Of a stretch of DNA of 49,002 nt, positions 27,259 through 41,065 are shown one piece after another. The position numbers and the translations under genes are program-made. The notes under the pieces were generated by a model. That model had not been told where the DNA came from, searched no databases, and saw only the letters and a program-made list of their open reading frames with translations. How positions within the stretch are numbered: the stretch's first letter is position 1; each line of letters begins with the position of its first letter. Source of the stretch: Flavobacteriaceae bacterium. Lineage in GTDB: Bacteria > Patescibacteriota > Minisyncoccia > Phycocordibacterales > UBA1006. The DNA lies in contig JBLHIK010000002.1 in the NCBI GenBank assembly GCA_047614005.1, positions 1-49,002 of the forward strand, given 5' to 3'.

Positions 27259-27446
27259 ATTTAGTTGTGTATTAAATTGTCTATTAAAAAAGCCCGATTT
27301 TATATCGGACAATTACTATATAAATATATCAGACAGATAAAAAAAGTCAATTAAAGTCTGCTGCATGAGTAGGAACTTTTCCACAGAATATTTTTTCAAA
27401 TTTATATACTTTTTTTATATGCTATAATTTAAGTACAAAATTCATT

Positions 27447-27836
27447 ATGCAAACACCAAACAATAATCAACAAAAAGATGTACTCGATGAACTCAACACT
27501 ATAATGAGTGAAGCAGATACATCAGTACATAAAAAAGTAGTTATTACCGAAGAGCTCTCATTAGCTAGTCGTTCAAAATATTCTTTATATGTTGGAGTAG
27601 GAGTTCTCGTTCTTGTTGTTATTGCAGGGATTGTTGTTTATATTGACAGTAGGTCAAGCCGCATCGACGAAGGAATTTTCCCCGCTGAAGTTCAATACGA
27701 TATTTTAGCAGAAAATAAGCGTCGGTCAGGAGAGGTAAATATTTCAGAAGACGAGCAACGTTCTATGTCAGAAGCAAGTTCATATTCAGGAGATGTACCT
27801 TTTTCTTTTGAAAACCTAGGTCAACGACATAAATAA
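27447..27836 (+). CDS. single-pass membrane protein, hypothetical; first gene of the surface-protein operon
   Basis: One TM segment (LYVGVGVLVLVVIAGIVVYI). It ends 4 nt before the next gene. Confidence 0.55.
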   Translation: MQTPNNNQQKDVLDELNTIMSEADTSVHKKVVITEELSLASRSKYSLYVGVGVLVLVVIAGIVVYIDSRSSRIDEGIFPAEVQYDILAENKRRSGEVNISEDEQRSMSEASSYSGDVPFSFENLGQRHK

Positions 27837-27840
27837 ACAT

Positions 27841-29643
27841 ATGACAAAAAAACTTACACAATTTTCAGTTTTTATTTTCTCACTACTTTGTATTGTGCTG
27901 TTCTCTATCTCTCTATCTCATGCTGCACCAAACGACCCATCAGGACCAGTAGAGACTCCAAAAGACAGCACTGATTCGACTTTGAATTCTGCACAAAACG
28001 TACTAGGCTGGGCATGGGGTGCAGAAAACAACGAAGGCTCATCTGGGGTGGGATGGATTAGTTTTAGTTCAGAAAATAATGTTTCTAATGATACTTCTGT
28101 AGGAGGAGGTCGTCATACTATAGCTCTTTCAGAAAACATAGTATCAAAAGCTCATGCACAAAACAGCACTGCTACTTATGGAGTAAGCATGGAAAGCAAT
28201 ACAGGCGATATGTCTGGATATTCTTGGAGTAGTAACTATGGATGGATTAGCTTCAATCCAGAAAGTGTCTCTGGCTGTCCAGGAACAGGATCTTGTGCCC
28301 CAAGACTTGATATTGCAAACGGAGAATTACGCGGATGGGCACGATACTGCAGTGTCTTTGTTTCAGGATGTTCCGGAGCATTAAAATCCCAAAACCAAAG
28401 AGGAACATGGGAAGGTTGGATATCTCTGAGTTGTAAAGACACAAGCTGTACTGAGCGTGTTGCCAAAAACACAAATACAGAAAATTCAAAAATATTTGCA
28501 TTTTTATCTTCAAAAGTTCTCAAAATCAAAAACTTTTTTAATACAATAGTGCCTTATGTGAATGCGCAAACCTCTCAAGGAAAAAGTGAAGTAGGACAAG
28601 ATCCTGGTTCTGATGAAAATGTTTCTTCTCAAATGGTTGGTAATTACGGCATATATTTAAATACATCTAACTCCTCAGAACAAAAACTAGAAGGATTCGC
28701 ATGGTCAGGACATGCAGGATCTATTATGGATGGATGGATAGAATTCTCAGATGTTATTGTGGAGCTTGGTGACCCTGCTCTTTCTCTTTCTGCTGAACCT
28801 CTCGTGGCAACAGGACCATCATATGAAGTAAAACTCTTATGGAAATCCGATAATGAAAACAATTTTTCTTCATGTACTGCTAGCGCAGAAGATGTTTCTG
28901 GAAATCCTCTAGCAATAGATGATTGGAATGGATCTCTCTCTGCTTCTCAAATACCAAATAATACAAATGGATACGGCCCTTTTGAAATGTCTAACATTGT
29001 AGTTCCTCGAGACCCAACTATCTTTAAACTGAGCTGTATGGAAGCGGGTACTACTGTAGAGTCAAGAGTGCAGGTAGATTACTCAGAAGAAAATTCAGAT
29101 GTGCTTCTTTCTGCTATAAGCCCTGTTTATAGTGGCCAAAATACAGAACTATCATGGCAAATATCACCTTTGGTAAATAGTTGTGAATTCTCTGTTATTC
29201 CATCTGCTCCAAAACCAGGAACTGTCACATCATCTGGGTCTGAGTCTGTGGGACCATTGAGTGCTATATCTTCAAACAAAACATATACATATACTATTAC
29301 CTGCCAGACAGACAACGGAGAAGCTTCCAGTAGTACTATGGTAAACGTACTACAGTCGAGTATATCTCTATCAGGTGATTCTTGTGTGCTCAACAGTGGT
29401 GATATCGCACGCCTCTCTTGGAATGAAATACCAAACGGCTCATCTGTGAGTGGTTGTGATACAAACTGGGGAGGTTCTGTCCCATCATCAGGCACAGCGC
29501 AAATTCCTGTAAATAGCACCAAAGACTATTACATTAACTGTGATGATGGTATAGACTCCAATGTACACACCATAGAAGTCACCTCTCAGTGCTCAGGATC
29601 AGGTACTACTCCGGGTGATAATTTTAGATATATTGAGAGATAA
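27841..29643 (+). CDS. secreted repeat protein: four G[WYF]xW...GWI[SE]F motifs followed by three Ig-like modules
   Basis: Signal peptide, then GWAWG..GWISFS, GYSWSSNYGWISFN, GWARY..WEGWISLS and GFAWSG..DGWIEFS. Three C-terminal modules each carry L(S/L)W...SC...W.G. Confidence 0.7.
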   Translation: MTKKLTQFSVFIFSLLCIVLFSISLSHAAPNDPSGPVETPKDSTDSTLNSAQNVLGWAWGAENNEGSSGVGWISFSSENNVSNDTSVGGGRHTIALSENIVSKAHAQNSTATYGVSMESNTGDMSGYSWSSNYGWISFNPESVSGCPGTGSCAPRLDIANGELRGWARYCSVFVSGCSGALKSQNQRGTWEGWISLSCKDTSCTERVAKNTNTENSKIFAFLSSKVLKIKNFFNTIVPYVNAQTSQGKSEVGQDPGSDENVSSQMVGNYGIYLNTSNSSEQKLEGFAWSGHAGSIMDGWIEFSDVIVELGDPALSLSAEPLVATGPSYEVKLLWKSDNENNFSSCTASAEDVSGNPLAIDDWNGSLSASQIPNNTNGYGPFEMSNIVVPRDPTIFKLSCMEAGTTVESRVQVDYSEENSDVLLSAISPVYSGQNTELSWQISPLVNSCEFSVIPSAPKPGTVTSSGSESVGPLSAISSNKTYTYTITCQTDNGEASSSTMVNVLQSSISLSGDSCVLNSGDIARLSWNEIPNGSSVSGCDTNWGGSVPSSGTAQIPVNSTKDYYINCDDGIDSNVHTIEVTSQCSGSGTTPGDNFRYIER

Positions 29644-29663
29644 GCTAATACACTACTTATTAT

Positions 29664-30668
29664 ATGAAAAAAATACAAAACACAAACAAAATACTTACTT
29701 TGCTAAAAACTGGATTTACTCTCGCTACTTTTCTGCTTGTAAGTGGTGTCTTGCATGGAGCATGGAGCCAGCCTAGCTGTGCTCCTCCGGAATGTAATGT
29801 AGCTTTACCTATAAATGCATCAAAAGATTTCCAGATCAAAGGAGGAGTGAGTTCCTCTGGGGGTCTTTCTATTGGAGGGCTTTTATCAAAAAATATAAAT
29901 CTTATAGGTGGATTTGAAACATATTCACCAGGGTCTTCTACATCTGTTGGTCTTGAGGTGCTCGACACTGCTTCGTTTTACAATGATGCTACTTTTTCAG
30001 GAATAGTAGATTTTATATCTTTTCCAACTCCTGGACAAAAATATACCTCTAATGATACACTTTCTACTTATGATAATGCCGAAAACAACATAGTTTCTTT
30101 TGAAAGTGGTCTAAAAATAACTGGAAATGGTAATACATCTGGTAAATATTTAGGAACTTCAAATCAAAAAATAGCAATACAAGGATTAGGTAATACACAA
30201 GCTACTAGTTTTGATGAAACAAAATCACCTTCTGTAGTTACAGGGTGGCAAAAAACAGAAGAAGCCCAAAGAGAAATATCTCTTATTCCAAATCCTAGTA
30301 GTCCTGCTTCTCGAGTTGCATATGCTCAATATAATGCTAGCAAAGAACCTGACTATTGGTATCCTCATTCAGAAGATGGTGTATTTTATGGTGCAGTGCA
30401 ATGTGCTGAAGATGAAGTTATGATTGGAGGGGGTGGTAGTTGTGATCTCCCTCAGAATCTTACTGATTATCCTAGAAATGATGATTTATATAATTATCAA
30501 GGTGCGTCATTCTCATATTCATTTACTGAAAATCTTTATTATGATTATTATAATTCAACATCATCACGTAAACCCGATGTTGCATGGATTAAGGAATGCG
30601 TTCGACCTAAAACAAACCCAAACTCCAGTAGTGCTATTGTAAGAGTGTGGGCGCTTTGTATAAAATAA
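29664..30668 (+). CDS. secreted/anchored protein P1 of a three-member paralogous family; prepilin-like N-terminus
   Basis: LLKTG|FTLATFLLVSGVL, then WSQPSCAPPECNVALPINAS, then the C-terminal module CAEDEVMIGGGGSC...WIKEC...WALCIK. Confidence 0.7.
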   Translation: MKKIQNTNKILTLLKTGFTLATFLLVSGVLHGAWSQPSCAPPECNVALPINASKDFQIKGGVSSSGGLSIGGLLSKNINLIGGFETYSPGSSTSVGLEVLDTASFYNDATFSGIVDFISFPTPGQKYTSNDTLSTYDNAENNIVSFESGLKITGNGNTSGKYLGTSNQKIAIQGLGNTQATSFDETKSPSVVTGWQKTEEAQREISLIPNPSSPASRVAYAQYNASKEPDYWYPHSEDGVFYGAVQCAEDEVMIGGGGSCDLPQNLTDYPRNDDLYNYQGASFSYSFTENLYYDYYNSTSSRKPDVAWIKECVRPKTNPNSSSAIVRVWALCIK

Positions 30669-30669
30669 T

Positions 30670-31440
30670 ATGAATATGAATATAAATAATAAAAAAAGCA
30701 TCATAACACTCGTACTAGCTACTGTTTTGCTCGGAGGGATGTCTCTCGGAGCTGTTTCTTGGTCAGATAAACCATCATGTACTCCTCCTTTGTGTAATGC
30801 ATCGTCACCTATAAATACTGATACTACTGATCAAGTTAAAGGATATCTTGAAAATGGGAAGATAGCTACAAATACTTCTATTGTTCGAGGCCTCGCTCGT
30901 GCGCGGGACTATCTCGCAGCAGACAACCTTAATATCAATGAGAAATCATCTTTTTCAGGTGCAGTAGAAATATTTGGAGATGTCTCTTTCTCTGGAGAAA
31001 TGAAAATACCTTTTGATAAAATCGTTACAAATGGAGATACTCTTGATAGTCTATTTTATACAGATACTAACGGAGACGGTACCTTTTCACTTCAGGTTGC
31101 GCCTGATATTGCTATTAATGTTGTGTCACATAAAACAACATCCAATCCTAATACAAGTTGGAGACGAGCCTTATCTAGTGATTCTTATTCTAGCGGAACA
31201 AATACTATTTATACATCACATGTAGATGTTGGTTGCTTTCCTCAATTGCCTATTCTTATAGGTGGTGGTGGAAGTTGTGAAAATTCTTTTGCACTGAGAG
31301 AGCACTATAGTCATAATGCATCATATCCTATTTTCCAAAATGTATGGAGGCAAGAATGTGCTGCTGGGTCAGATACTGATGGTTCTTCTATCTCTGGTGA
31401 AACTCAAAGAAGTTATGCTTATGCAATTTGTAGTAAATAA
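30670..31440 (+). CDS. secreted/anchored protein P2, paralogue of P1
   Basis: TM/signal segment, then WSDKPSCTPPLCNASSPINTD, then CFPQLPILIGGGGSC...WRQEC...YAICSK. Its start codon begins 2 nt after the P1 stop. Confidence 0.7.
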   Translation: MNMNINNKKSIITLVLATVLLGGMSLGAVSWSDKPSCTPPLCNASSPINTDTTDQVKGYLENGKIATNTSIVRGLARARDYLAADNLNINEKSSFSGAVEIFGDVSFSGEMKIPFDKIVTNGDTLDSLFYTDTNGDGTFSLQVAPDIAINVVSHKTTSNPNTSWRRALSSDSYSSGTNTIYTSHVDVGCFPQLPILIGGGGSCENSFALREHYSHNASYPIFQNVWRQECAAGSDTDGSSISGETQRSYAYAICSK

Positions 31441-31445
31441 ATAAT

Positions 31446-33125
31446 ATGAAAAACACACTCAAAAAAATAATATTCTCAATTTTCATTACTAGCCTTTCTT
31501 TCTTTTTGCAGACAAGTGATACTTCTGCTGCAGAGGTAGGCTCTGGTGCTGTTGGTTTCAACCAGATTTGTTTCGCAGACACAAAAACAGATGGTTGTAG
31601 TGGTGGTATAAAAAGGAATTGGTGTCCAGAAAACTGCAACATCGCAGAGGATACATATACTGAACAAGACATACGAAGTATGTGTGGAGACAATACATGT
31701 CAGGCATGGGAGGCAGGAGCAGGATGGTTTGTTGAAGAAGGCTTGAAATCCGGCAACTATTATTTTGGAACAACATACGGAAGTACTCCAGGAAATCAAT
31801 CTCCTGATAATATATATCGCTATAATCATCCTAATTACCCCAATCCAGCAACTGCTCCCCAGGGGCATGTAGATGGAACTTCACATGGATGGGCTTCTGG
31901 CAATGGACCATATAGTCAAGAAGGTAAAAATGAGACCTATGATGATATTATTGAATGGTTGCATGATTTTAGTAGTGGTGGTGGTGATGGAAACCTTAAA
32001 GAGGTTATTTTTCCAGGAGTATGGAAACCATCCATTGCAGGTAGTGGTTTTTGTGGATCAAGAGGTTGTTCGGAAACAGCAAAAGAAAACTGGGAACAAG
32101 AAATGGGAAATGGTGCTGTTGGGACTGTTGCAAAATACCCTTATGTTTATTCAAATGGAGAACAAGTAAGTTGTCCTCAGGATTGTACTGCTGTATGTAA
32201 TTTTGATAACATATGTGATGTGAATATTGGAGAAAATATAAATAACTGTCCGAGTGACTGTTCTGGAAATCCACCGCCATCACCAACTACATGTGCAGAC
32301 GGTACTGTAAAAGAGGACAATCCGTATGGGCAATGTCCTTGTGCTGGAGTAGTGCCTACAGCATACCCTGGAGACTATCCAGACGGACAATGTCCAGTTT
32401 CTGGAAGCTGTACATATCCTGCGGTGGGAGGTTGGGTGCAGCCCCTCAAATCTCCTTCACAGTGTCATATAGGTAGTCCTCTCTCAGAAAATTCACAAAA
32501 CGAGTTCAAAGGTGTCGCTCTCAACGAAGGATCAATATCCGTAGGTACTTTGTATTCACGTACGAGTATCGAAGCAGGAGAGGTGAATGTGGGGGAAAAA
32601 GATTATATATTTCTTGACAAGCAAATTGAGTCAGACCTAGCTACTAATTTCAACATTTTCAAAAAATCTCTTTTCAAGGATATTGTATTTATGAACGACA
32701 CAAATAGTAAAAGAAACAACCACTCAACTGCCACCTTCACCAACTTCGTCCGTCTCCCTTCTACTATCTTCATACCAAATTCCATCCCAGGAGCACTCTT
32801 GCGCGCAGACTCCACAGGTACTCTCGTGCCTACTGCCGTAGATACTTCTCTGCGTACTACCTTTATAGAGAGGACTCTCAAGGTAAGTGACACGACGACA
32901 GATAGCGGTCCAGGAAAGATAGGGACTATCACCTGTCCAGTATCTCATCCCGTAGTGCTCGGAGGAGGAGGAGCATGTCTCCAAGGAGATTTGTTCAAGC
33001 CTCGTCATGGAGAGCTCATGCCGACTGGTAGTGGATGGCAACTCCGCTGTAACGAAGTCAAAGTACGACAAAACGGATATGATGACGCTATGAAGCTCAG
33101 CCTTATCTGTGGAAAAGCAGAATAG
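31446..33125 (+). CDS. secreted Cys-rich protein P3 carrying the same C-terminal module
   Basis: Signal peptide, a Cys knot motif CNFDNICDVNIGENINNCPSDC, a P/C-rich linker, and C-terminal CPVSHPVVLGGGGAC...WQLRC...LICGK. Confidence 0.7.
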   Translation: MKNTLKKIIFSIFITSLSFFLQTSDTSAAEVGSGAVGFNQICFADTKTDGCSGGIKRNWCPENCNIAEDTYTEQDIRSMCGDNTCQAWEAGAGWFVEEGLKSGNYYFGTTYGSTPGNQSPDNIYRYNHPNYPNPATAPQGHVDGTSHGWASGNGPYSQEGKNETYDDIIEWLHDFSSGGGDGNLKEVIFPGVWKPSIAGSGFCGSRGCSETAKENWEQEMGNGAVGTVAKYPYVYSNGEQVSCPQDCTAVCNFDNICDVNIGENINNCPSDCSGNPPPSPTTCADGTVKEDNPYGQCPCAGVVPTAYPGDYPDGQCPVSGSCTYPAVGGWVQPLKSPSQCHIGSPLSENSQNEFKGVALNEGSISVGTLYSRTSIEAGEVNVGEKDYIFLDKQIESDLATNFNIFKKSLFKDIVFMNDTNSKRNNHSTATFTNFVRLPSTIFIPNSIPGALLRADSTGTLVPTAVDTSLRTTFIERTLKVSDTTTDSGPGKIGTITCPVSHPVVLGGGGACLQGDLFKPRHGELMPTGSGWQLRCNEVKVRQNGYDDAMKLSLICGKAE

Positions 33126-33197: not shown

Positions 33198-34565
33198 ATG
33201 AAACGTAAAATTTCATTGTTTTTAATTTCTTTTTTTCTTTTTTCTTTTCTTGCTCAAACAAGCTTTGCTCAAAGTGAGTGGACTCCTTCAAATGATTTTG
33301 AAGGAAAATTAGTTAATGAAGAATCATATATTGTTCAAGACAATATAATGTATTTTAGTACCTATCCTCTTGGTAATGATACTTTGTTTATTTTAAACAA
33401 AGATACAAAAATTATTACTTCACTAGGTGTTTCAGTTTCGTATTATAATAAAATACAAAGCATTTTGAATAATACCTTGTATTTTATTGCCAATACTAGT
33501 GATGGACAGAGAGTTCGTTCATTAGATCTTTTAGATAAGATGATACCTCATGCAGAGGACATTGTTTTATCAATAGGAGGTGGATCTATTAGTAGCGTTC
33601 AATCTTTTGAAAAAAATGGAGTGACAAAACTCCTTCTTTTGGGAAAATTTACTTCTATTGAGACAAACAGTGGCGTATATACTATTACCAACTGCGCATC
33701 CATTGATCTTTCTACGGGTGTGGTGAATGCTCCACACAATCCATTTATGGATTTATGGACAAGAACAAGTAGGCCAATGTTGCGAAAAAATGGAAATGTT
33801 GTTTTTCAATCTAATCATGATGAATTATTTTTTGTCTACAATCCTCAGTTAGATTGCATTATAGAGGCAGACCAGTATTTTCCTGACAAGAGTATCTCTC
33901 GTGATATTATAGAAGAACCTGAGCTTATTGGTCAATTAAATGACGAAAGACTAGTGTTTAGTATTAAAAAAAGTGCTAAGAGTGGTTATGAGAATGGCAG
34001 TCTGGCTATTCAAGATACTGTAAACAACACCACTCATTATTATGGAGAAATATTATCAGAAATGTCTAGTGGATATGGTTTTTCTGTTATTGGTGATTAT
34101 ATCTATAGTACATATGATAACTTCTATCAAAATAATGGGGATAGAGTAATTGGCAACTATGTTACCAGGCTTAATCTTCAGACAGGCTTGTTTGAAGTTG
34201 TAGGTAGTGAGTTTTCACACAAACCAATAAAAGTATACGGTGACAGTATTTTATATGTTGACGTTCCTGATGGAAATTCATGGTTTGTAACGTATAAATT
34301 CAACACTGAAACCGGAATCTGGGAAAATTCTAAGGCAAAAAAACTTGGACTATATCCCAATCCAATAAGTAACGGAGAGGTATTGCACCTTTCCGAATCT
34401 GTAGATAACTATACTTTGTATGACAAGACTGGTAGAGCTATCAAAGCAAATAAAACAGAAACAAAGACCATTGATATACAAAACCTACCTGTAGGTATAT
34501 ACAATATCGTGGCTAGCAAAAAAGAAAAAGAAAAAACATTTACCGGACGATTCATCGTTAAGTAA
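33198..34565 (+). CDS. secreted protein with a T9SS-type (Por) C-terminal sorting domain
   Basis: Signal peptide MKRKISLFLISFFLFSFLAQTSFA. C-terminus LYPNPISNGEVLHLSESVDNYTLYDKTGRAIKANK...IDIQNLPVGIYNIVASKK...GRFIVK matches the TIGR04183-like pattern. Confidence 0.7.
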   Translation: MKRKISLFLISFFLFSFLAQTSFAQSEWTPSNDFEGKLVNEESYIVQDNIMYFSTYPLGNDTLFILNKDTKIITSLGVSVSYYNKIQSILNNTLYFIANTSDGQRVRSLDLLDKMIPHAEDIVLSIGGGSISSVQSFEKNGVTKLLLLGKFTSIETNSGVYTITNCASIDLSTGVVNAPHNPFMDLWTRTSRPMLRKNGNVVFQSNHDELFFVYNPQLDCIIEADQYFPDKSISRDIIEEPELIGQLNDERLVFSIKKSAKSGYENGSLAIQDTVNNTTHYYGEILSEMSSGYGFSVIGDYIYSTYDNFYQNNGDRVIGNYVTRLNLQTGLFEVVGSEFSHKPIKVYGDSILYVDVPDGNSWFVTYKFNTETGIWENSKAKKLGLYPNPISNGEVLHLSESVDNYTLYDKTGRAIKANKTETKTIDIQNLPVGIYNIVASKKEKEKTFTGRFIVK

Positions 34566-34730
34566 ATAAAAATTAAAAACTCTAAGAGGATGTCGCTTTC
34601 TCAGAAAGCCACGCCTCATCGTTAAAGCTTTTAGCTTTAAAAAGCTCACCTATCATAACCTTGAGCAGTTATGTGTAGTGTGAGCTTTTTTATTTACGAA
34701 ATTTTTGAAAATGAGGTACAATGGAGATAC

Positions 34731-36482
34731 ATGTATATTCAAGAAGACAAGATTCGTGAGTTTATTATTGATAGTAATCTCATTACTCAAAAAGACTACG
34801 CAGTTGCTGAGCAAAAAGCCCAAAAAGGATCTCAGAGCACTCTCGAGATTCTTGTATCAGAAGGTATCATCTCGGACAATGATATGAGGCGTGTTCAGGC
34901 GTACGTTCTGGGAATACCCTTTATCTCACTCATGGGTCAGCATGTGGATTTTGATATTCTCTCACTCATCCCTGAGCCTATTGCAAAAGCCAACAACATA
35001 ATAGCCTATAAGAAAAGTGAACAAGGTCTCGAAGTGGCGATGCTCGAAGTAGGGGATTTACACGTTCTTGATTTTATAAAGAAAAAGGTAGGACTCAGAA
35101 TACTCCCTCGTCTTACTGACGAAGAAAGCTTGCGTGCAGTACTCCTACAGTACAAACAGTCCTTGCAGGCAGATTTTAATGACATCATTCAAAAAGAAGC
35201 AAAGGTGTCGATGAAGACTATTAAAGATGGAGAAGACGAGACAAGTGAAAAAGATCTTCAGCAAATGGCAGAAGATCTCCCAATCATCAAGATAGTAGAG
35301 ACTCTCATCTCTCATGCTATTTTGCAAAATACATCAGATATACATATAGAACCCGAAGAAAAACAACTCATCGTGAGATATCGTATAGATGGTGTACTCC
35401 GCGACGCCATGATACTTCCAAAAGATACAGCTCCTGGTATCGTGGCACGTATTAAAGTTCTTTCGAGCTTGAAACTCGACGAAAAGAGACTTCCTCAAGA
35501 TGGACGATTCAAGATAGAACAAGATGGACAGAAAGTTTCTTTCCGCGTCTCTACTCTCCCTACATATTATGGAGAAAAGGTCGTCATACGTATTTTGAAA
35601 GAAAACAAACAAGGATACTCTCTGGAAAAAATTGGTTTTTATGGAGAAGGTTTGGAAAAAGTGCACAAAGCAATGAATCACACGACAGGTCTCATCCTCG
35701 CAGCTGGACCTACTGGATCAGGTAAAACTACCACTCTGTATACTATGCTCGACATTCTTAATACCCCCGAGGTAAATATTTCAACAGTAGAAGATCCTAT
35801 CGAATATCAGATGTCACGTATAAACCAAACACAAGTAAAACCTTCCATAGGTCTTACTTTCGCAAATGGACTACGTGCTCTTTTGAGACAAGATCCAGAT
35901 ATTATCATGGTGGGAGAGATTCGTGACAATGAGACAGCGTCTCTTGCTATGAACGCCGCTCTGACAGGGCACCTTGTGCTCTCTACTATTCACACCAACT
36001 CAGCGGCAGGTGCTCTTCCTCGTATGATTGATATGGGTATGGAACCTTTTCTTATTGTATCTACGTTGCGTACGGTGATTGCTCAAAGGCTCGTAAGAAA
36101 GCTCAGCTCATCAAAAGAAAAATACTTTTTAAGCAAAGAAGAACTCGCTCATCTCGGCGAGTTGATAGATCTTCCTCGAATGCTCTCTATCCTTAAAGCA
36201 GAAAAGGTAGTAGGTCAAAGTGATACATGGGCAGAGATTCCTTTTTATAGAGCAAGAAAGACTGACACTCACAAAGAAGAATATTTAGGACGTATCGGTA
36301 TTCATGAGATATTGGAAATCTCTCCTACTATAAAGAATCTTGTAGTAGCCGGTGCTACTTCAGATGAAATACACGAACAAGCAAAAAAAGAAGGAATGAT
36401 GACAATGCTCGAAGATGGTATTCTCAATGCTGTTCAGGGAAATACCACCACAGAAGAGGTGTTGAGAGTTATTTCAGAATAG
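34731..36482 (+). CDS. pilB: type IV pilus assembly ATPase PilB (GspE family)
   Basis: T2SSE N-terminal domain, Walker A GPTGSGKTTT, and GEIRD. The ATG at 34731 is preceded by GGAG. The longer track ORF overlaps an upstream hairpin. Confidence 0.9.
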   Translation: MYIQEDKIREFIIDSNLITQKDYAVAEQKAQKGSQSTLEILVSEGIISDNDMRRVQAYVLGIPFISLMGQHVDFDILSLIPEPIAKANNIIAYKKSEQGLEVAMLEVGDLHVLDFIKKKVGLRILPRLTDEESLRAVLLQYKQSLQADFNDIIQKEAKVSMKTIKDGEDETSEKDLQQMAEDLPIIKIVETLISHAILQNTSDIHIEPEEKQLIVRYRIDGVLRDAMILPKDTAPGIVARIKVLSSLKLDEKRLPQDGRFKIEQDGQKVSFRVSTLPTYYGEKVVIRILKENKQGYSLEKIGFYGEGLEKVHKAMNHTTGLILAAGPTGSGKTTTLYTMLDILNTPEVNISTVEDPIEYQMSRINQTQVKPSIGLTFANGLRALLRQDPDIIMVGEIRDNETASLAMNAALTGHLVLSTIHTNSAAGALPRMIDMGMEPFLIVSTLRTVIAQRLVRKLSSSKEKYFLSKEELAHLGELIDLPRMLSILKAEKVVGQSDTWAEIPFYRARKTDTHKEEYLGRIGIHEILEISPTIKNLVVAGATSDEIHEQAKKEGMMTMLEDGILNAVQGNTTTEEVLRVISE

Positions 36483-36501
36483 AATTAAAATTAGCAAAAG
36501 A

Positions 36502-36532
36502 AGAAGAGAGAAAATTTCTCTCTTCTTTTTAT
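36502..36532 (+). terminator. hairpin plus T-run between pilB and pilC (terminator or attenuator)
   Basis: Stem AGAAGAGAG-AAAATTT-CTCTCTTCT followed by TTTT. Confidence 0.55.
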
Positions 36533-36584
36533 ATATAATTTGTTTTATACGTACAAATTAAGAAAATACGTTATAATAGAAGTA

Positions 36585-37808
36585 ATGAAGATGCAATACT
36601 TTGAATATAAGGCAAAAAATACTGCTGGAAAAATAATAACTGGAGAAAAGGAAGTCTCTGGTAAATCTGATCTCGTAGAAGAGCTTGCTCGAGAGGGACT
36701 TATTCCTATTTCTATTTCTCTTAAAAAGTCACGCTCGGGAGATATTGACCTTTCACACTTTAAAATGTTTCAAAGAGTAAAACTCTCTGAAAAGATTGTC
36801 TTTACCAGAAATCTAGGAGGGATGCTCACAGCAGGGCTCACTGTCAATCGCTCTTTAGATATACTACAAAGACAAACCACTAACTTTTATTTTGGTAGAG
36901 CTATCTCTGATATATCTGAATCCATACAGGCAGGAGGAACGCTCTCTTCTGGTTTGAAAAAATATCCAAAGATATTCTCACCACTTTTTGTGGCAATGAT
37001 GGAAGCAGGAGAAGAGTCTGGTTCTCTTCCAGAGTCTCTCGAACAGGTATCTATTCAGCTTGCAAAAGCTGCAAATTTACAGAGAAAGATCAAAGGAGCC
37101 ATGATGTACCCATCTATTATTATGGGTGCGATGTTTTTGATTGGTATTCTTATGATGATTTTTGTTGTACCTACTCTCACTTCTACGTTTCTTGATCTTG
37201 GTGTACAGCTCCCAGGTAGTACACGTCTTGTTGTAGGTATATCTGATTTTTTGAGAAACAACACGCTTGTGTTCCTTGTCATGCTTGCTGGTGTTATCCT
37301 TGGTATTAAATATCTCTTTAAAATCCACTCCGTCACTGTTGCCTTCCAAAAATTTATTGTAAAAGTGCCAGTACTCGGTACTCTTGTAAAAGAAGTTCAA
37401 ACAGCACAAACAGCACGAACTCTTTCCTCTCTTCTTTCATCAGGTGTCACAATGACAAATGCACTTGAGATTACAAAACGTGTTGTTCAAAACTATCACT
37501 ACAAAAGAGTAATTCAAAAAGGTATTGATTCTATACAAAAAGGTATTCCTCTTTCAGTAGAGTTCAAAGCACATAGTAATCTCTATCCTGTAATGATGGG
37601 GGAAATGATGGAGGTTGGTGAAGAGACAGGAAACCTCTCTAAAATGCTAGAAGATATTGCTGTGTTTTATGAAGAAGAGGTTGATAATAAAACAAAAAAC
37701 CTCTCTACTATCATAGAGCCTGTTCTTATGATATTCATTGGAGCCGCTGTTGGTTTTTTTGCAGTATCGATGATTACTCCGATGTACTCATTGCTCGATA
37801 ATATATAG
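36585..37808 (+). CDS. pilC: type IV pilus platform protein PilC (GspF family)
   Basis: Two GspF repeats with three TM segments, and YPVMMGEMMEVGEETGNL. The start is ATG 36585 or 36591. Confidence 0.9.
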   Translation: MKMQYFEYKAKNTAGKIITGEKEVSGKSDLVEELAREGLIPISISLKKSRSGDIDLSHFKMFQRVKLSEKIVFTRNLGGMLTAGLTVNRSLDILQRQTTNFYFGRAISDISESIQAGGTLSSGLKKYPKIFSPLFVAMMEAGEESGSLPESLEQVSIQLAKAANLQRKIKGAMMYPSIIMGAMFLIGILMMIFVVPTLTSTFLDLGVQLPGSTRLVVGISDFLRNNTLVFLVMLAGVILGIKYLFKIHSVTVAFQKFIVKVPVLGTLVKEVQTAQTARTLSSLLSSGVTMTNALEITKRVVQNYHYKRVIQKGIDSIQKGIPLSVEFKAHSNLYPVMMGEMMEVGEETGNLSKMLEDIAVFYEEEVDNKTKNLSTIIEPVLMIFIGAAVGFFAVSMITPMYSLLDNI

Positions 37809-37817
37809 ACATATATT

Positions 37818-38285
37818 ATGTATTTTTATAAAAAAAGCATTAAAACAGGTTTCACATTACTTGAAATTATTGCAGGTATTGCCATCTTGGGTATTATTGC
37901 AGCGGTAGGTATTGGTAGCTTGTCTGATTTTAGAAAAGAGCAAAATTTTACAGGAACAATACAAGAGACCTTGGCTCTTATTTCAAATACAAAAGAAGAC
38001 ACTCTGGGGTCTAGAGGAGATACAAACTACGGAGTGCACTTTGAAGAAAGCAAGATAGTCGTTTTTGAAGGATCGAGTTATTCTTCATCAGATCCTGATA
38101 ACAGAGAAACTCTTTTAGAAAACGACATCACTATAAGTGATATTAGTCTGACAAACAATGCCACAGAGATTGTCTTTGAAAGATTAACAGGAGATGTTGA
38201 TGAAGTTGGAACTATTACTATATCCGATATATCTGGCAATGCAGTTACTATTACTATTGAGAGGACAGGTATTGTAAATATATAG
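37818..38285 (+). CDS. prepilin-type N-terminal cleavage/methylation domain protein (candidate major pilin)
   Basis: KTG|FTLLEIIAGIAILGIIAAV, with Glu at +5. Confidence 0.8.
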   Translation: MYFYKKSIKTGFTLLEIIAGIAILGIIAAVGIGSLSDFRKEQNFTGTIQETLALISNTKEDTLGSRGDTNYGVHFEESKIVVFEGSSYSSSDPDNRETLLENDITISDISLTNNATEIVFERLTGDVDEVGTITISDISGNAVTITIERTGIVNI

Positions 38286-38288
38286 CGT

Positions 38289-38777
38289 ATGAATTTTCAC
38301 TCAAAAAAAACAAAAGCAAAAGGTGTTGTACTCATTGAAGTGATTGTTGCTGTGAGTATTGTCACTCTTACTGTGTTTGCTCTCATTCTCTCTGTTCAAA
38401 AAGCATTATCACTCTCAGGGCATGCACTCCATCAAAGTAGAGCCAGCTTTCTTATGCAAGAAGGTGTGAATGCTCTTTATATTGTGAGAGATACAGGATG
38501 GTCTACCATAGATGGGCTTTCTCTTTCTACTGACTATTACTTGGAGTTTATTGGTGGAACGTGGACAGCCACATCGAGCCTTCAGACAATAGGAAAATAT
38601 ACTCGTACTTTTCAAATATCAAATGTAAATCGCAATATTCTCACTGACGATATTGCAAGCATTGGTCTTGATGATTCAAATACAAAAAAAGTAGATTTGT
38701 CTGTATCGTGGAGTGAAGGAGGTGAAGCATACAATGAGGAGATGTCCTTTTATTTGATTAATAGTTTTTCATCATAA
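38289..38777 (+). CDS. pseudopilin / minor pilin
   Basis: KAKG|VVLIEVIVAVSIVTL, with Glu at +5. Confidence 0.7.
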   Translation: MNFHSKKTKAKGVVLIEVIVAVSIVTLTVFALILSVQKALSLSGHALHQSRASFLMQEGVNALYIVRDTGWSTIDGLSLSTDYYLEFIGGTWTATSSLQTIGKYTRTFQISNVNRNILTDDIASIGLDDSNTKKVDLSVSWSEGGEAYNEEMSFYLINSFSS

Positions 38778-38778
38778 T

Positions 38779-39297
38779 ATGTTGCAATCTCGCATGGTAA
38801 ATCAAAAAGGTTACACTCTCGTAGAAATAATAGTCTATGTTGTTATTTTTTCTTTTGTAGGAGTTGCTCTGATCAATGTACTTATAAACCTTACAACTAA
38901 TTTTGCCATAACTCGCATCAACAGAACATTGCAAGAAACAGGGACATCAGTATTGTCCCGCATAGAGAATGAAGTAAACAACGCATACACTGTTGATGTT
39001 GTTTATAGTAATCTCGGCGGACATCCTGGTGATTTGTATATATATAAAGATGAGTTTGAATCAAATACTCTTGTGCGTTTTTATATTGATAATGATGTGG
39101 TGTATATATCAGAAGATGATTCATTATTGGGGCCTTTGTCTTCATCGTCTGTAGATATTGATAATCTTATATTTGACCACATTGTCACTTCTCAAGGACA
39201 GGCTCTGCGCGTGAGCCTCTCTCTCTCTGCTTCGCAGGGAAGCATTACTCGTAGTGCTGATTTCTTTACTACTTTAATATTACGAGAAAGCTACTAA
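38779..39297 (+). CDS. pseudopilin / minor pilin
   Basis: NQKG|YTLVEIIVYVVIFSFV, with Glu at +5. Its start overlaps the end of the previous gene. Confidence 0.7.
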   Translation: MLQSRMVNQKGYTLVEIIVYVVIFSFVGVALINVLINLTTNFAITRINRTLQETGTSVLSRIENEVNNAYTVDVVYSNLGGHPGDLYIYKDEFESNTLVRFYIDNDVVYISEDDSLLGPLSSSSVDIDNLIFDHIVTSQGQALRVSLSLSASQGSITRSADFFTTLILRESY

Positions 39298-39298
39298 T

Positions 39299-41065
39299 AT
39301 GATACAAGCATTCAACAGACAAAAAGGAGCAGCAATGATTACTATGGTAATATTTTTTATCTTTGGATCACTTGCTGTGATGTTTGCTATTGCGCGGCCC
39401 GCACTCCAACAAATACAGTCATCGCAAACGCGAGTGCAATCTGTGTATGCAAATACTCTCGCTGAGAGTGGTTCAATGGATGCTTATTATCGTATTAATT
39501 CAGACATGACTATTGGCTCATCAGAGACCATTACATTAGATGGACATAGTGTTATTACAACTATCACTTCTCCCTCAGGTTCAGAGAGAGTGATTACTGC
39601 TGTTGCAGATGTAAAAAACCGTATTCGAAAAAACAATATGACTATGGGTAGAGGGATAAAAATACCTCTGACGATTACTGTCGTAACAGGAGCTGATGGT
39701 ATTGTAATGAATCAAAATTCTACAATAACAGGCGAAGCATATTCAAATGGAATTATACAAGGATCAAGTGGAACTACTATTACAAAAAATGCCTCTGCTG
39801 TATCTTCTTCTGCTCCTATTGTTGATATTATAAATAATATACCCCCTATTCCAACGACAAGCGTGAGAGTAGGTGATACTGCTTCTACTGAAGACATTGC
39901 TCAAAGCATTGGATTTACAAATACTAATCCTTTTATGAAATTGCAGTTTTATATGAAAAAAATAGGAAATCCGGGAGATAGGAGTGTCTATATTGTAGAA
40001 GATAATCTTGGTACTCCATCTACTACTGTACTCGCAAGTGGTGTCTTGTATAGTCGATTTGTTACTAATGACTATTTTTGGGTGGACGTTACTATGTCTC
40101 CTAATTTTACACCGAATATTACAGATACTTATTGGATTGTGATAGATGGTGGAGTCAATAGTAGTAATTATTATGAAATTGGTACAAATCCTTTTACTCC
40201 ACTAGGCAAGGCTCAAAGTGGTTCTTATGGAGAGAGCTGGGTAGACGTTGTTCCTTCAGGTATGGATATTGGATTTGCTACTATCTTGGGGACTCTTGAT
40301 GGGTCTATTACTGATATAGATTCTATTGGAGAAGATGGACATGCTCATACTATTACAGGTAGTAGTCTGGATACTCCCGCTTCAAATAACTTCTACTGCC
40401 AGGTAGAAATTGGAAACAATGAATCTTGTAATACTTCTCGCACTAATCCTGGATCTCTAAATAATCCTCTCTCTTCTGGAAATATACAAGAATTTAAAGA
40501 TGAAGCTGTTGCAGGTGGAACTATTCTTGTGCCATATACAGCACTAGTGAGCTCAAGTCTAGGGCCTAAAAAAATAGAAGGAGACCTTACAGTCAAAAAT
40601 GGTGTTACTCTGACTCTCACAGGAACAATATGGGTGACAGGTGATATTATCCTTGAGAACAATAGTATTATCAAGCTCGATAATTCTATCTATGGTGGAA
40701 CAGGTGGTGTTGTCGTTACTGATGGACAAGTTGATATAAAAAATAATGCATCATTGGAAGGTACAGGAACTACTGGGAGTTTCTTATTGCTCATTAGTAC
40801 AAGTAGTTGCGATGAGAGTAATATTCTTACTTGTGGTGGAGCAAATGCGATTGATGTTTCTAATAATACAGAAGGTACTATCTTATATGCAGAAAATGGA
40901 ACAGTAAGTTTTTCTAACAATGTTTCTACGACAGCAGCCTATGCAAAAAAACTATTTATGAAAAACAACTCAATGGTAACTGTTGATGGTTCCGTTAAAG
41001 ATGCTCGTTTCACAGGAGGATCTGATAGTCCATGGGAGCTAGATACATGGAGAGAGATAGAGTAG
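39299..41065 (+). CDS. large PilX-like minor pilin / candidate tip protein
   Basis: RQKG|AAMITMVIFFIFGSLAVMF, with no Glu at +5. The 560-aa extracellular part is G/T/N-rich and beta-helix-like toward the C-terminus. Confidence 0.6.
   Translation: MIQAFNRQKGAAMITMVIFFIFGSLAVMFAIARPALQQIQSSQTRVQSVYANTLAESGSMDAYYRINSDMTIGSSETITLDGHSVITTITSPSGSERVITAVADVKNRIRKNNMTMGRGIKIPLTITVVTGADGIVMNQNSTITGEAYSNGIIQGSSGTTITKNASAVSSSAPIVDIINNIPPIPTTSVRVGDTASTEDIAQSIGFTNTNPFMKLQFYMKKIGNPGDRSVYIVEDNLGTPSTTVLASGVLYSRFVTNDYFWVDVTMSPNFTPNITDTYWIVIDGGVNSSNYYEIGTNPFTPLGKAQSGSYGESWVDVVPSGMDIGFATILGTLDGSITDIDSIGEDGHAHTITGSSLDTPASNNFYCQVEIGNNESCNTSRTNPGSLNNPLSSGNIQEFKDEAVAGGTILVPYTALVSSSLGPKKIEGDLTVKNGVTLTLTGTIWVTGDIILENNSIIKLDNSIYGGTGGVVVTDGQVDIKNNASLEGTGTTGSFLLLISTSSCDESNILTCGGANAIDVSNNTEGTILYAENGTVSFSNNVSTTAAYAKKLFMKNNSMVTVDGSVKDARFTGGSDSPWELDTWREIE

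Follow-up and report, generated by a model that had tools for sequence, protein, structure and literature searches.

What is the role of the exported proteins encoded beside the type IV pilus genes in the genome of this ultra-small Patescibacterium: are they parts of the pilus, or surface proteins with a task of their own? Patescibacteria make up a large share of bacterial diversity, and to our knowledge it is largely unknown how their uncultivated members recognise and hold their hosts; the sole host-attachment factor that we know to have been tested so far is the type IV pilus, in Saccharibacteria only. In the window, i.e., the whole 49,002-nt stretch of DNA analysed, five co-oriented genes lie on the + strand at 27447-27836 (gene 1), 27841-29643 (P0), 29664-30668 (P1), 30670-31440 (P2) and 31446-33125 (P3). 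Their intergenic gaps are 4, 20, 1 and 5 nt, in this order, in agreement with an earlier note on this DNA, which had described five genes packed at distances of 1-20 nt with the P0-P1 gap the widest. A putative promoter-like site found by consensus matching, TTTATA-16-TG-TATAAT (27401..27428, + strand; 10/12 matches, extended -10), ends 19 nt 5' of gene 1. The same note had placed the cluster directly upstream of pilB, which is not correct, since two elements intervene, a gene whose exported 455-aa product has a C-terminal sorting domain of the T9SS type (T9SS-CTD; 33198..34565, + strand; Por_Secre_tail E=7.7e-8, TIGR04183) and a 165-nt hairpin spacer. This spacer, which follows the T9SS-CTD gene and precedes pilB, has a folding energy of -43 kcal/mol (z=-6.6) that none of 200 shuffled versions reached, and it contains a long, terminator-like hairpin with a U-run (34640..34699, + strand). 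The five genes would form one transcription unit, possibly with the T9SS-CTD gene added; the window sequence is present only in DNA runs from ice metagenomes. In relatives, the T9SS-CTD gene stays beside the cluster in either orientation, and in the related loci L001, L047, L049 and L052 it adjoins it on the opposite strand. Within the set of P1-P3 and this neighbour, the Por_Secre_tail / TIGR04183 sorting domain is present only in the neighbour, and we rejected P1-P3 as T9SS cargo for want of it.

The claim that all five products are secreted holds for P0-P3, which are Sec-exported, but not for gene 1, a 129-aa bitopic membrane protein with one internal TM helix (~residues 44-66), no signal peptide, and a tail of E.Q.DIL.E / QR.M.E repeats. 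P0 (600 aa) carries four GW..GWI.F repeats followed by Ig-like Cys modules, ends in ...NFRYIER, and is homologous to a 691-aa protein of L001 (E=3e-24). P1 (334 aa) and P2 (256 aa) are fibre-like proteins, P1 consisting of a signal peptide, an N-module, a stalk and a C-module, and P2 being assigned by paralogy, alignment and HMM; P3 (559 aa) has a signal peptide and a 300-aa Cys-rich extension ahead of a complete P1/P2-like unit. That P1-P3 are three paralogues with a common Cys-framed C-module, as had been proposed, is confirmed by BLASTP (P1 vs P2, E=6e-8; P1 vs P3, E=7e-6; P2 vs P3, E=5e-4), by a three-way alignment and by an HMM built from outside sequences. The residues invariant in this alignment are, in P1 numbering, W34, P37, P41, C44, P49, K59 and G60 in the N-terminal part, and C247, GGGG 255-258, C260, W308, C312, C332 and K334 in the C-terminal part.

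The N-terminal motif common to P1-P3 is W..P...P..C(N/H)...P(I/L). In P1 the N-module (WSQPSCAPPECNVALPINASKDFQIKG, residues 34-60, 29763..29843, + strand) begins directly after a predicted SPase I site, ..HGA|W, and is recovered, besides the alignment, by an N-module HMM built from 44 family seeds (E=4.7e-15), as is that of P2 (WSDKPSCTPPLCNASSPINTDTTDQVKG, residues 31-58, 30760..30843, + strand; E=2.7e-7). The motif had been reported for P1 and P2, correctly in both cases but incompletely, as P3 has an internal, divergent copy as well (WVQPLKSPSQCHIGSPLSENSQNEFKG, residues 329-355, 32433..32513, + strand), which was found by BLASTP and the three-way alignment and missed by the N-module HMM (cut-off E<1e-3). 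This internal copy lies behind the Cys-rich extension (residues 28-325, 31527..32420, + strand), for which we found no Pfam family and, in a PDB search, only sub-threshold noise; such a position fits poorly with a simple docking peptide at a free N-terminus. In the wider family the signature reads W..P...PP..N...P(I/L)N....Q.K.G, with P1 and P2 positive by HMM, right after the signal peptide (0-3 residues). Of 37 motif matches (36 ORFs, 40 GTDB loci), 31 have the N-module behind a signal peptide, at a distance of 23-40 residues from the start.

At the other end, P1-P3 share a four-Cys module, C...GGGG[SA]C...W...C...C.K, hereafter the GGGG-C head, which spans residues 230-334 of P1 with long loop insertions (30351..30665), 178-256 of P2 (31201..31437) and 478-559 of P3 (32877..33122, the unit modelled with AF2), all on the + strand. 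Run against the 323 ORFs of the window, an HMM of 15 such modules, all from other genomes, recovers the three copies (E=1.7e-4, 5e-8 and 2e-7, respectively) and no others (next E-value, 0.99); likewise, only the P1, P2 and P3 ORFs match [VILMT][VILMT]GGG[GA].C in a six-frame scan of the window. The head is rare, with 21 sequences in 8 genomes from five species-level lineages, or six if L052 is counted separately from L049. It has no match in Pfam, NCBIfam or PHROGs, so that the module is no member of a named family in these profile collections, in agreement with the earlier note, which had recognised none. In 18 aligned modules the four Cys are invariant, and indels occur only in three loops between strands. 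The AF2 model of the 82-aa P3 head (pLDDT 82.5, pTM 0.66) has seven beta strands, and a compact all-beta fold is predicted for the head; modelling of the full-length monomer gave a poor result (pLDDT 41). Fold searches with the head model returned no significant match (lowest E-value 0.44 for PDB and 0.026 for BFVD), and among the best BFVD matches, at TM 0.5-0.6, tips of the phage tail-fibre, Mtd-N and H-type-lectin kinds are over-represented, a weak likeness. The profile-HMM and structure-prediction check that had been proposed for the module, once run, thus pointed to no well-characterised domain. In the perforin-like proteins of apicomplexans (PDB 5OUO), the module profile hits each of the three APC-beta repeats at ..V.CP....VV.GG.. 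and ..C....IY.LC., at a non-significant E=5.9, which suggests, as a lead only, a possible three-fold assembly of modules. This match was not reproduced by single-sequence search and is absent among the top 50 PDB matches that Foldseek listed for the confident model; with no significant sequence or structural likeness, we rejected the head as an APC-beta or beta-prism repeat. Judged from its sequence, the GGGG-C head is a disulfide-stapled tip absent from catalogues until now.

The five-gene cluster is a recurrent Patescibacterial cassette that comprises a small membrane protein, an exported GW..GWI.F-repeat protein, and fibre proteins in which a conserved N-module behind the signal peptide is combined with swappable heads; no description of it was found in the literature searched. 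The five-gene unit is intact in L001, L047, L049 and L052, and partial versions lie downstream of NusA in L012 and L026. Equivalents of gene 1, which are 85-127-aa 1-TM proteins with EEK..I(L/V)..L repeats, open the cassette in L001, L047, L049, L052, L003, L012 and L026. More widely, a small 1-TM protein is encoded directly 5' of the fibre gene in 17/32 related loci, and a GW-repeat protein within 2.5 kb of it in 11/32; both partners are present on the same strand in the window, at 27447 (1-TM) and 27841 (GW repeats). The heads of relatives include Peptidase_S74 in L012 (E=2.3e-16) and L025 (E=2.7e-13), collagen in L008, Gly_rich_2 twice, Big_7 of the Ig type, and a Shufflon_N segment, while P1-P3 match neither Peptidase_S74 (PF13884) nor collagen. 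Between genomes that share 88-95% identity in NusA and PilB, the cassette proteins share 36-72%, a fast divergence that appears typical of exposed proteins. Within the L001 clade there are three stable orthologous groups with distinct loops, one of them with a permanently degenerate motif, and the three copies of the window do not pair 1:1 with these groups.

Could P1-P3 serve the adjacent type IV pilus machine as adhesins at its tip, as subunits of the minor-pilin kind, or as cargo that it displays or exports? The cassette is on the strand of pilB, pilC, three pilins with class III signals and a 588-aa terminal protein (34731..41065, + strand; ORF list and domain searches), 1.6 kb 5' of pilB, and the order NusA-cassette-pilBC is kept in L001, L047, L049, L052 and L012. 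However, a strong terminator-like hairpin precedes pilB in the window, and in L001, L047, L049 and L052 pilB is 4-6 kb off, with opposite-strand genes in between that encode the T9SS-CTD protein, a tRNA synthetase and, in one relative, a Mur ligase. L026 has NusA, the cassette and the same head, yet no pilB within ~6 kb downstream. The neighbourhood comparison that had been called for therefore gave a divided answer: linkage to pilB holds within the one clade that keeps the NusA-cassette-pilBC order, but not across the wider N-module family, where pilB lies within 3 kb in 3/40 loci, slightly above an estimated ~2% chance, and is missing from the retrieved locus in 37/40. The small 1-TM protein and the GW-repeat protein are far more constant partners. 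As for the proteins themselves, the P1 leader contains KTG|FTL, as does the pilin at 37818, and part of the constant region of the PilV shufflon is present in one family member. On the other hand, P1-P3 lack a class III signal, in which a short basic leader with a final G would be followed by F/M-T-L-x-E5 and an N-terminal hydrophobic helix of 20 aa or more; they have no Glu5 and no N_methyl or TIGR02532 match, in searches to which the pilins at 37818 and 38779 were positive; in P1, KTG|FTLAT is followed by only ~16 hydrophobic residues and the SPase I-type site, and the KTGFTL string is confined to P1 and missing from all orthologues. In addition, the pilus operon already closes with its own candidate tip protein, the PilX-like 588-aa product.

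Type IV pilus tip adhesins such as PilY1/PilC, and PilX2 of Nanosynbacter lyticus TM7x (PMC12206443), are likewise large non-canonical proteins near pilus genes and candidate host binders in host-attached bacteria, but P1-P3 lack the pilin-like N-terminal helix, the PilY1 beta-propeller and any Pfam match, and would belong to a separate transcription unit whose linkage is not kept outside one clade. We rejected PilY1/PilC-type tip adhesins in particular, as there was no Pfam/NCBIfam match at E<=1 and the head is an 82-aa beta domain rather than a propeller. The proposed role of P1-P3 as pilus-associated tip or cargo proteins is thus unsupported, there being no pilin signal, a terminator-like hairpin and no general linkage, and we consider it improbable. 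The proximity of pilB is inherited synteny inside one clade, and P1-P3 do not demonstrably belong to the nearby pilus. A functional tie between cassette and pilus may nevertheless exist, because the cassette lies near pilBC in the window and in L001, L047, L049, L052 and L012, with pilB adjacent or no more than 6 kb off.

We favour, with moderate confidence, the reading that P1-P3 are attachment fibres of the MAT or tail-fibre kind, close-range adhesins that would stand beside the type IV pilus and not be its parts, and that these short exported surface proteins probably grip the host cell. The earlier proposal of host-attachment candidates is a reasonable inference in this respect, because P1-P3 are exported, Cys-stapled and fast-evolving surface candidates of a Patescibacterium. 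In this reading gene 1 is the small single-pass membrane protein, P0 the Sec-exported protein with GW..GWI.F repeats, and P1-P3 would be the stalk-and-head proteins. Cleavage of the signal peptide would put the N-module of P1 and P2, presumably stapled by its C-x-P-P-x-C pair, at or beside the mature N-terminus, and the gene neighbourhood suggests that this module fixes the fibre to the envelope via gene 1 and/or the GW-repeat protein. The stalk would probably oligomerise in the manner of phage tail fibres, since the family relatives include proteins with a terminal Peptidase_S74 trimerisation chaperone and proteins with a collagen triple helix. The C-terminal 80-105 aa would then be a compact all-beta head with two disulfides, whose three indel-rich loops may bind a ligand on the host or partner cell, and each of the three paralogues would contribute a head and a stalk length of its own.

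One of the closest parallels comes from Bdellovibrio bacteriovorus, whose mosaic adhesive trimer (MAT) fibres (Caulton et al. 2024, PMC10769870) resemble the cassette proteins in layout, with a signal peptide, a conserved module right after it, a stalk, and highly variable, exchangeable tips. In both families part of the members end in a Peptidase_S74 chaperone and part do not, and the owners, which live on other bacteria, have several paralogues per genome. However, the MAT N-domain is ~130 aa and beta-rich, whereas the N-module here is ~30-50 aa with another motif, the two being compared by description; a small membrane protein and GW-repeat partners are not described for MATs; and no solved MAT tip corresponds to the GGGG-C head (no PDB match). 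With regard to a homotrimeric fibre, S74 and collagen occur in family relatives and in none of P1-P3. The fibre reading also fits a model for Saccharibacteria in which pilus tethering is followed by separate close-proximity adhesins (PMC12206443).

The stalk-and-tip layout is equally that of S74 phage tail fibres and tailspikes (T5 pb1, K1F endosialidase), and L012 has, in the same chromosomal slot, an S74 domain with their SDxxxK motif. Are the genes then phage tail-fibre genes of a prophage or tailocin remnant? The S74 chaperone of relatives and the weak structural neighbours of the head, which are tail-fibre tips and an R2 pyocin fibre, would agree with this. Nevertheless, P1-P3 are chromosomal and S74-free, all the tail-fibre-like proteins carry Sec signal peptides, none of the five proteins has a PHROG match, no phage structural, integrase or lysis genes surround the cluster, and its position beside NusA is fixed across genomes in which NusA is only 65% identical. 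We regard a phage origin of this kind as extremely improbable.

Somewhat less improbable, though still doubtful, is that P1-P3 are exported envelope proteins with a non-adhesive role, either in a cell-wall or S-layer-like structure or in the capture of nutrients or ligands, and that they resemble fibres in architecture only. Function is indeed inferred from architecture only, no characterised binding domain is significantly matched, and the cassette has a stable place next to housekeeping genes (NusA, pyrophosphatase); but very fast divergence, and heads swapped between S74, collagen, Ig and Gly-rich types, characterise receptor-binding proteins more than structural ones of the envelope, and three orthologous groups with distinct loops have been kept. 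A more elaborate and rather improbable reading would make the cassette a Patescibacteria-specific host-contact organelle new to the literature, with an envelope-anchored base of gene 1 and the GW-protein, an N-module plug and a heterotrimeric P1-P3 fibre, in which three Cys-framed modules around a pseudo-threefold axis would form a single asymmetric binding head, beta-prism-like to judge by the hint from the sub-threshold APC-beta match. Exactly three fibre genes in the window and in the L001 clade, and the three stable groups of that clade, one of them motif-degenerate, fit this arrangement; the lack of 1:1 pairing between the two sets suggests that the number three was maintained independently.

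Under the preferred reading as close-range attachment fibres, the cassette, conserved and fast-evolving, with tail-fibre-like proteins of exchangeable heads and two fixed partners, provides concrete, expressible candidates for the close-range adhesins postulated by pilus studies, and pilB adjacency in a single genome proves to be weak evidence of a pilus role. The GGGG-C head would be tractable for structure determination and ligand screening, because it is small, disulfide-stapled and confidently modelled and has no catalogued relative.

Five open reading frames (ORFs) of one orientation, starting at 27447, 27841, 29664, 30670 and 31446, are separated by gaps of 4, 20, 1 and 5 nt, in agreement with the tight spacing described in the earlier note, and a promoter-like TTTATA-16-TG-TATAAT sequence lies 19 nt upstream of them. 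The last three ORFs encode P1 (334 aa), P2 (256 aa) and P3 (559 aa), which are paralogues as had been proposed, being similar in all pairs by BLASTP (P1/P2 6e-8, P1/P3 7e-6, P2/P3 5e-4) with two conserved blocks aligned. The first block (N-module) reads W-x-x-P-x-x-x-P-x-x-C-(N/H)-x-x-x-P-(I/L)-...-K-G, and the second, the C-terminal module (C-module, or GGGG-C head), contains four invariant cysteines, a GGGG run and one tryptophan in the pattern C..(V/I/L)(I/L)GGGG(S/A)C ... W...C ... C.K. The N-terminal motif, noted before in P1 and P2, is indeed found there, but P3 also carries a copy, which is internal because residues ~326-559 form an entire P1/P2-like unit behind a 300-aa Cys-rich extension. 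The description of the cluster as an operon of secreted proteins holds for P0, a 600-aa protein with a signal peptide and four GW..GWI.F repeats, but not for gene 1, whose 129-aa product is not secreted and has a single internal transmembrane (TM) helix and a tail bearing repeats. The extension of P3 (31527-32420, residues 28-325) includes the stretch CNFDNICDVNIGENINNCPSDC and, around GDGNLKEVIFPGVWKPSIAG, shows a sub-threshold likeness to the flap region of retropepsin. As this likeness reached E=0.002 against tethered dimers only and E=0.45 against single chains, and the D-T/S-G motif is absent, we rejected the retropepsin reading and regard the similarity in sequence as probably due to chance.

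A hidden Markov model built solely from 15 C-modules of other genomes recovered exactly P1-P3 among the 323 ORFs of the window (P2 5e-8, P3 2e-7 and P1 1.7e-4), the best other ORF scoring 0.99; therefore, the module is real and not a chance pattern. The GGGG-C motif was not found outside P1-P3 in any of the six frames of the window. The module matches no named family, as had been suspected: searches of Pfam, NCBIfam and PHROGs returned no match for any of the five cluster proteins even at E<=1, and the downstream pilins were recognised normally by the same Pfam and NCBIfam searches. A HMMER search of 1.84 billion representative proteins with a three-sequence profile gave five non-self matches only, word-indexed homology searches with P2 and a six-sequence profile gave self matches only, and neither GTDB genomes nor JGI metagenomes yielded a confirmed relative when scanned with C-module patterns. 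The C-module totals 21 sequences from 8 genomes, and we found no published description of the cassette in the literature.

Monomer models of fibre proteins are commonly poor, and that of full-length P2 was no exception (pLDDT 41), so we discarded its Foldseek result as noise. The isolated P3 module, modelled from an 8-sequence alignment, gave a pLDDT of 82.5 and a pTM of 0.66 with seven beta strands. Foldseek searches with this model returned no significant match in either PDB or BFVD. The highest-ranking PDB entries (best E=0.44) were Ig domains of Gram-positive pilins and an R2 pyocin fibre, and the BFVD matches (best E=0.026, TM 0.5-0.6) included many phage tail-fibre proteins, lambda Stf repeats, Mtd N-terminal domains and H-type-lectin tips. 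A PDB profile search touched the three repeats of the apicomplexan APC-beta domain at E=5.9 only; this match was absent with a single sequence and with Foldseek on the good model, and we keep it as a lead only. In an 18-sequence alignment, the four cysteines are invariant, and indels are confined to three inter-strand loops, of which one follows GGGG.C, one precedes W...C and one precedes the last strand.

One HMMER match, P0009, lies on a 96-kb activated-sludge contig (L001) with the same five-gene unit, consisting of a 92-aa single-TM protein, a GW-repeat protein of 691 aa that matches P0 at E=3e-24, and three paralogues (227, 253 and 249 aa), all of which have a signal peptide, an N-module and a C-module. 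Through three close relatives of P0009 we reached three further genomes, L047, L049 and L052, whose layout is identical to that of L001. In the window and these four genomes (the L001 clade), the cassette is preceded by NusA and a pyrophosphatase (L052 is truncated upstream) and directly followed by a protein of the T9SS-CTD type (without a Pfam match in L052), with pilB-pilC beyond the CTD gene. Unlike in the window, the CTD gene and a tRNA synthetase gene in the L001 clade, and additionally a Mur ligase and a hydrolase in L047, are on the opposite strand; these genes lie within the 4-6 kb that separate pilB from the cassette. A locus in Paceibacteria (L012) has the order NusA, GW protein, small TM protein, one N-module fibre, a 257-aa protein, pilB, pilC and pilins, and L026 has NusA, small TM protein, GW protein and a 344-aa fibre that carries the GGGG-C head (..AIGGGGLC..W...C..ICVP); pilB was not found in ~6 kb downstream of the latter cassette. 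Two further members of the head family are L004, on a short contig, and L003, which lies next to SecY-Adk-Map genes and downstream of a 127-aa TM protein that has EEKLQIL repeats. The window organism comes from an ice metagenome, the window sequence being complete in one DNA run, and is present at low depth in a DNA run of a second ice metagenome; no RNA run was found to contain the sequence. The nearest relatives of the cassette were sampled in activated sludge and in other engineered or freshwater settings.

Identities within the L001 clade are 88-95% for NusA and PilB and 36-72% for the cassette proteins; the CTD protein diverges as fast as the latter (44-53%, PilB ~90%). Between the window and this clade, they are 65% for NusA and 67% for PilB; the cassette proteins, aligned over part of their length, reach ~26-48%. 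The phylogenetic tree contains three strongly supported orthologous groups within the clade, one of which is permanently degenerate in the motif (..INSG(A/V)VC.., no Trp), and P1-P3 fall outside the 12-member clade on long branches. Therefore, the triplet is stable within the clade. We considered whether P1, P2 and P3 each correspond to one of the three groups, but the tree does not support such one-to-one orthology, which is not demonstrable across clades.

The N-module of the cassette is a Cys-stapled variant of a common Patescibacteria motif, A|WTAPT..PPGGN..AP(I/L)NT...Q.K.G.L, located right after the signal peptidase site. Scanning the GTDB species representatives for this motif identified 40 loci, all in Patescibacteria. 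In 31 of the 37 matches (36 ORFs), the distance from the start codon to the motif is 23-40 residues. Of 32 loci, 17 encode a small single-TM protein directly upstream of the fibre gene, and 11 encode a GW-repeat protein on its strand at a distance of no more than 2.5 kb. We rejected a family-wide rule of exactly three fibre genes, since 33 of 38 loci have one N-module gene. In one MAG contig (L040, 2901-12025), two GW-repeat proteins are followed by three pairs of small single-TM protein and N-module fibre, an arrangement which suggests that this pair is the basic unit. The C-terminal parts of the fibre proteins are mosaic, with a Peptidase_S74 chaperone in L012 (E=2.3e-16, with SDWNLK) and L025, a collagen triple helix in L008, Gly_rich_2 in two proteins, and Ig domains, Big_7 among them. 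Of these, S74 and collagen typify trimeric fibres. Only L026 among the 40 loci has the GGGG-C head, which is therefore a rare tip type. A further mosaic piece, in common with a pilus adhesin, is a Shufflon_N segment in L039 (2796-3746, profile positions 211-277, E=8e-15), a profile that spans the constant region of PilV pilus-tip adhesins of IncI plasmids. Some heads (L017, 2448-2846; L018, 70-906) terminate in ..Y.(Y/V)RCV(R/K), which presumably resembles the C-terminus of DUF1566/Lcl-type lectin-like domains. Comparison of the ends of GW-repeat proteins (window 29617-29643, L001 8494-8520, L012, L026, L039, L040 and L041) revealed a conserved extreme C-terminal tail P-x-(F/Y)-x-E-(I/V/F)-COOH in ~11 of 17 cases (e.g., PIYEEF, PIFEEV, PTFQEI and PDFKEI), which could be a sorting or docking peptide; that of P0 is divergent (..NFRYIER).

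The cluster had been placed directly upstream of pilB; in fact, a gene at 33198-34565, whose product has a T9SS-type sorting domain (Por_Secre_tail, E=7.7e-8), and a 165-nt spacer intervene. A T9SS is not expected in Patescibacteria. The protein is exported, has ~455-465 aa and adjoins the cassette in all five genomes, on the plus strand in the window but on the minus strand in L001 (10827-12209), L047 (8865-10262), L049 (10803-12194) and L052 (5612-6976). With a folding energy of -43 kcal/mol (z=-6.6; 0 of 200 shuffles fold as well), the spacer is predicted to form a long hairpin between an A-run and a U-run plus two smaller hairpins (34566-34700). The long hairpin with its flanking runs is terminator-like and resembles a bidirectional intrinsic terminator. 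We found no comparable RNA structure between P3 and the CTD gene; therefore, the transcription unit may comprise six genes including the latter.

The earlier note suggested that P1-P3 are pilus-associated adhesins or tip or cargo proteins, and linkage to pilus genes is kept in the L001 clade and L012. However, the pilus-component reading is weak: P1-P3 have no class III signal peptide, the cassette and pilB are set apart by the terminator-like element and, in relatives, also by genes on the opposite strand, and the association vanishes outside one clade, pilB being absent from the fetched sequence of 37 of the 40 wider-family loci. The 3 of 40 loci with pilB inside the fetched sequence, against ~2% expected by chance on our own estimate, therefore amount to weak enrichment at most. 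The P1 leader (29664-29780, ..LLKTG|FTLATFLL..) looks like that of the pilin at 37818 around its prepilin cleavage site (KTG|FTLLE), but lacks Glu5 and is missing from all orthologues; therefore, this string is probably coincidental.

Our best-supported reading is instead a cell-surface fibre cassette of Sec-exported stalk-and-head proteins. Its sequence features, conservation, mosaic heads, predicted beta fold and fast divergence are observed here. The conserved N-module would be envelope-proximal and the distal head exchangeable, and the small membrane protein and the GW-repeat protein probably anchor or assemble the fibres. We further infer that P1-P3 oligomerise, dock to partner proteins and bind a ligand or host. 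Functionally, their nearest analogues are the MAT fibres of Bdellovibrio (PMC10769870) and the tail fibres of phages, membership being established for neither. Work on Saccharibacteria has proposed tethering by pili followed by separate close-proximity adhesins (PMC12206443), and the proposed fibres of this cassette fit the latter role.
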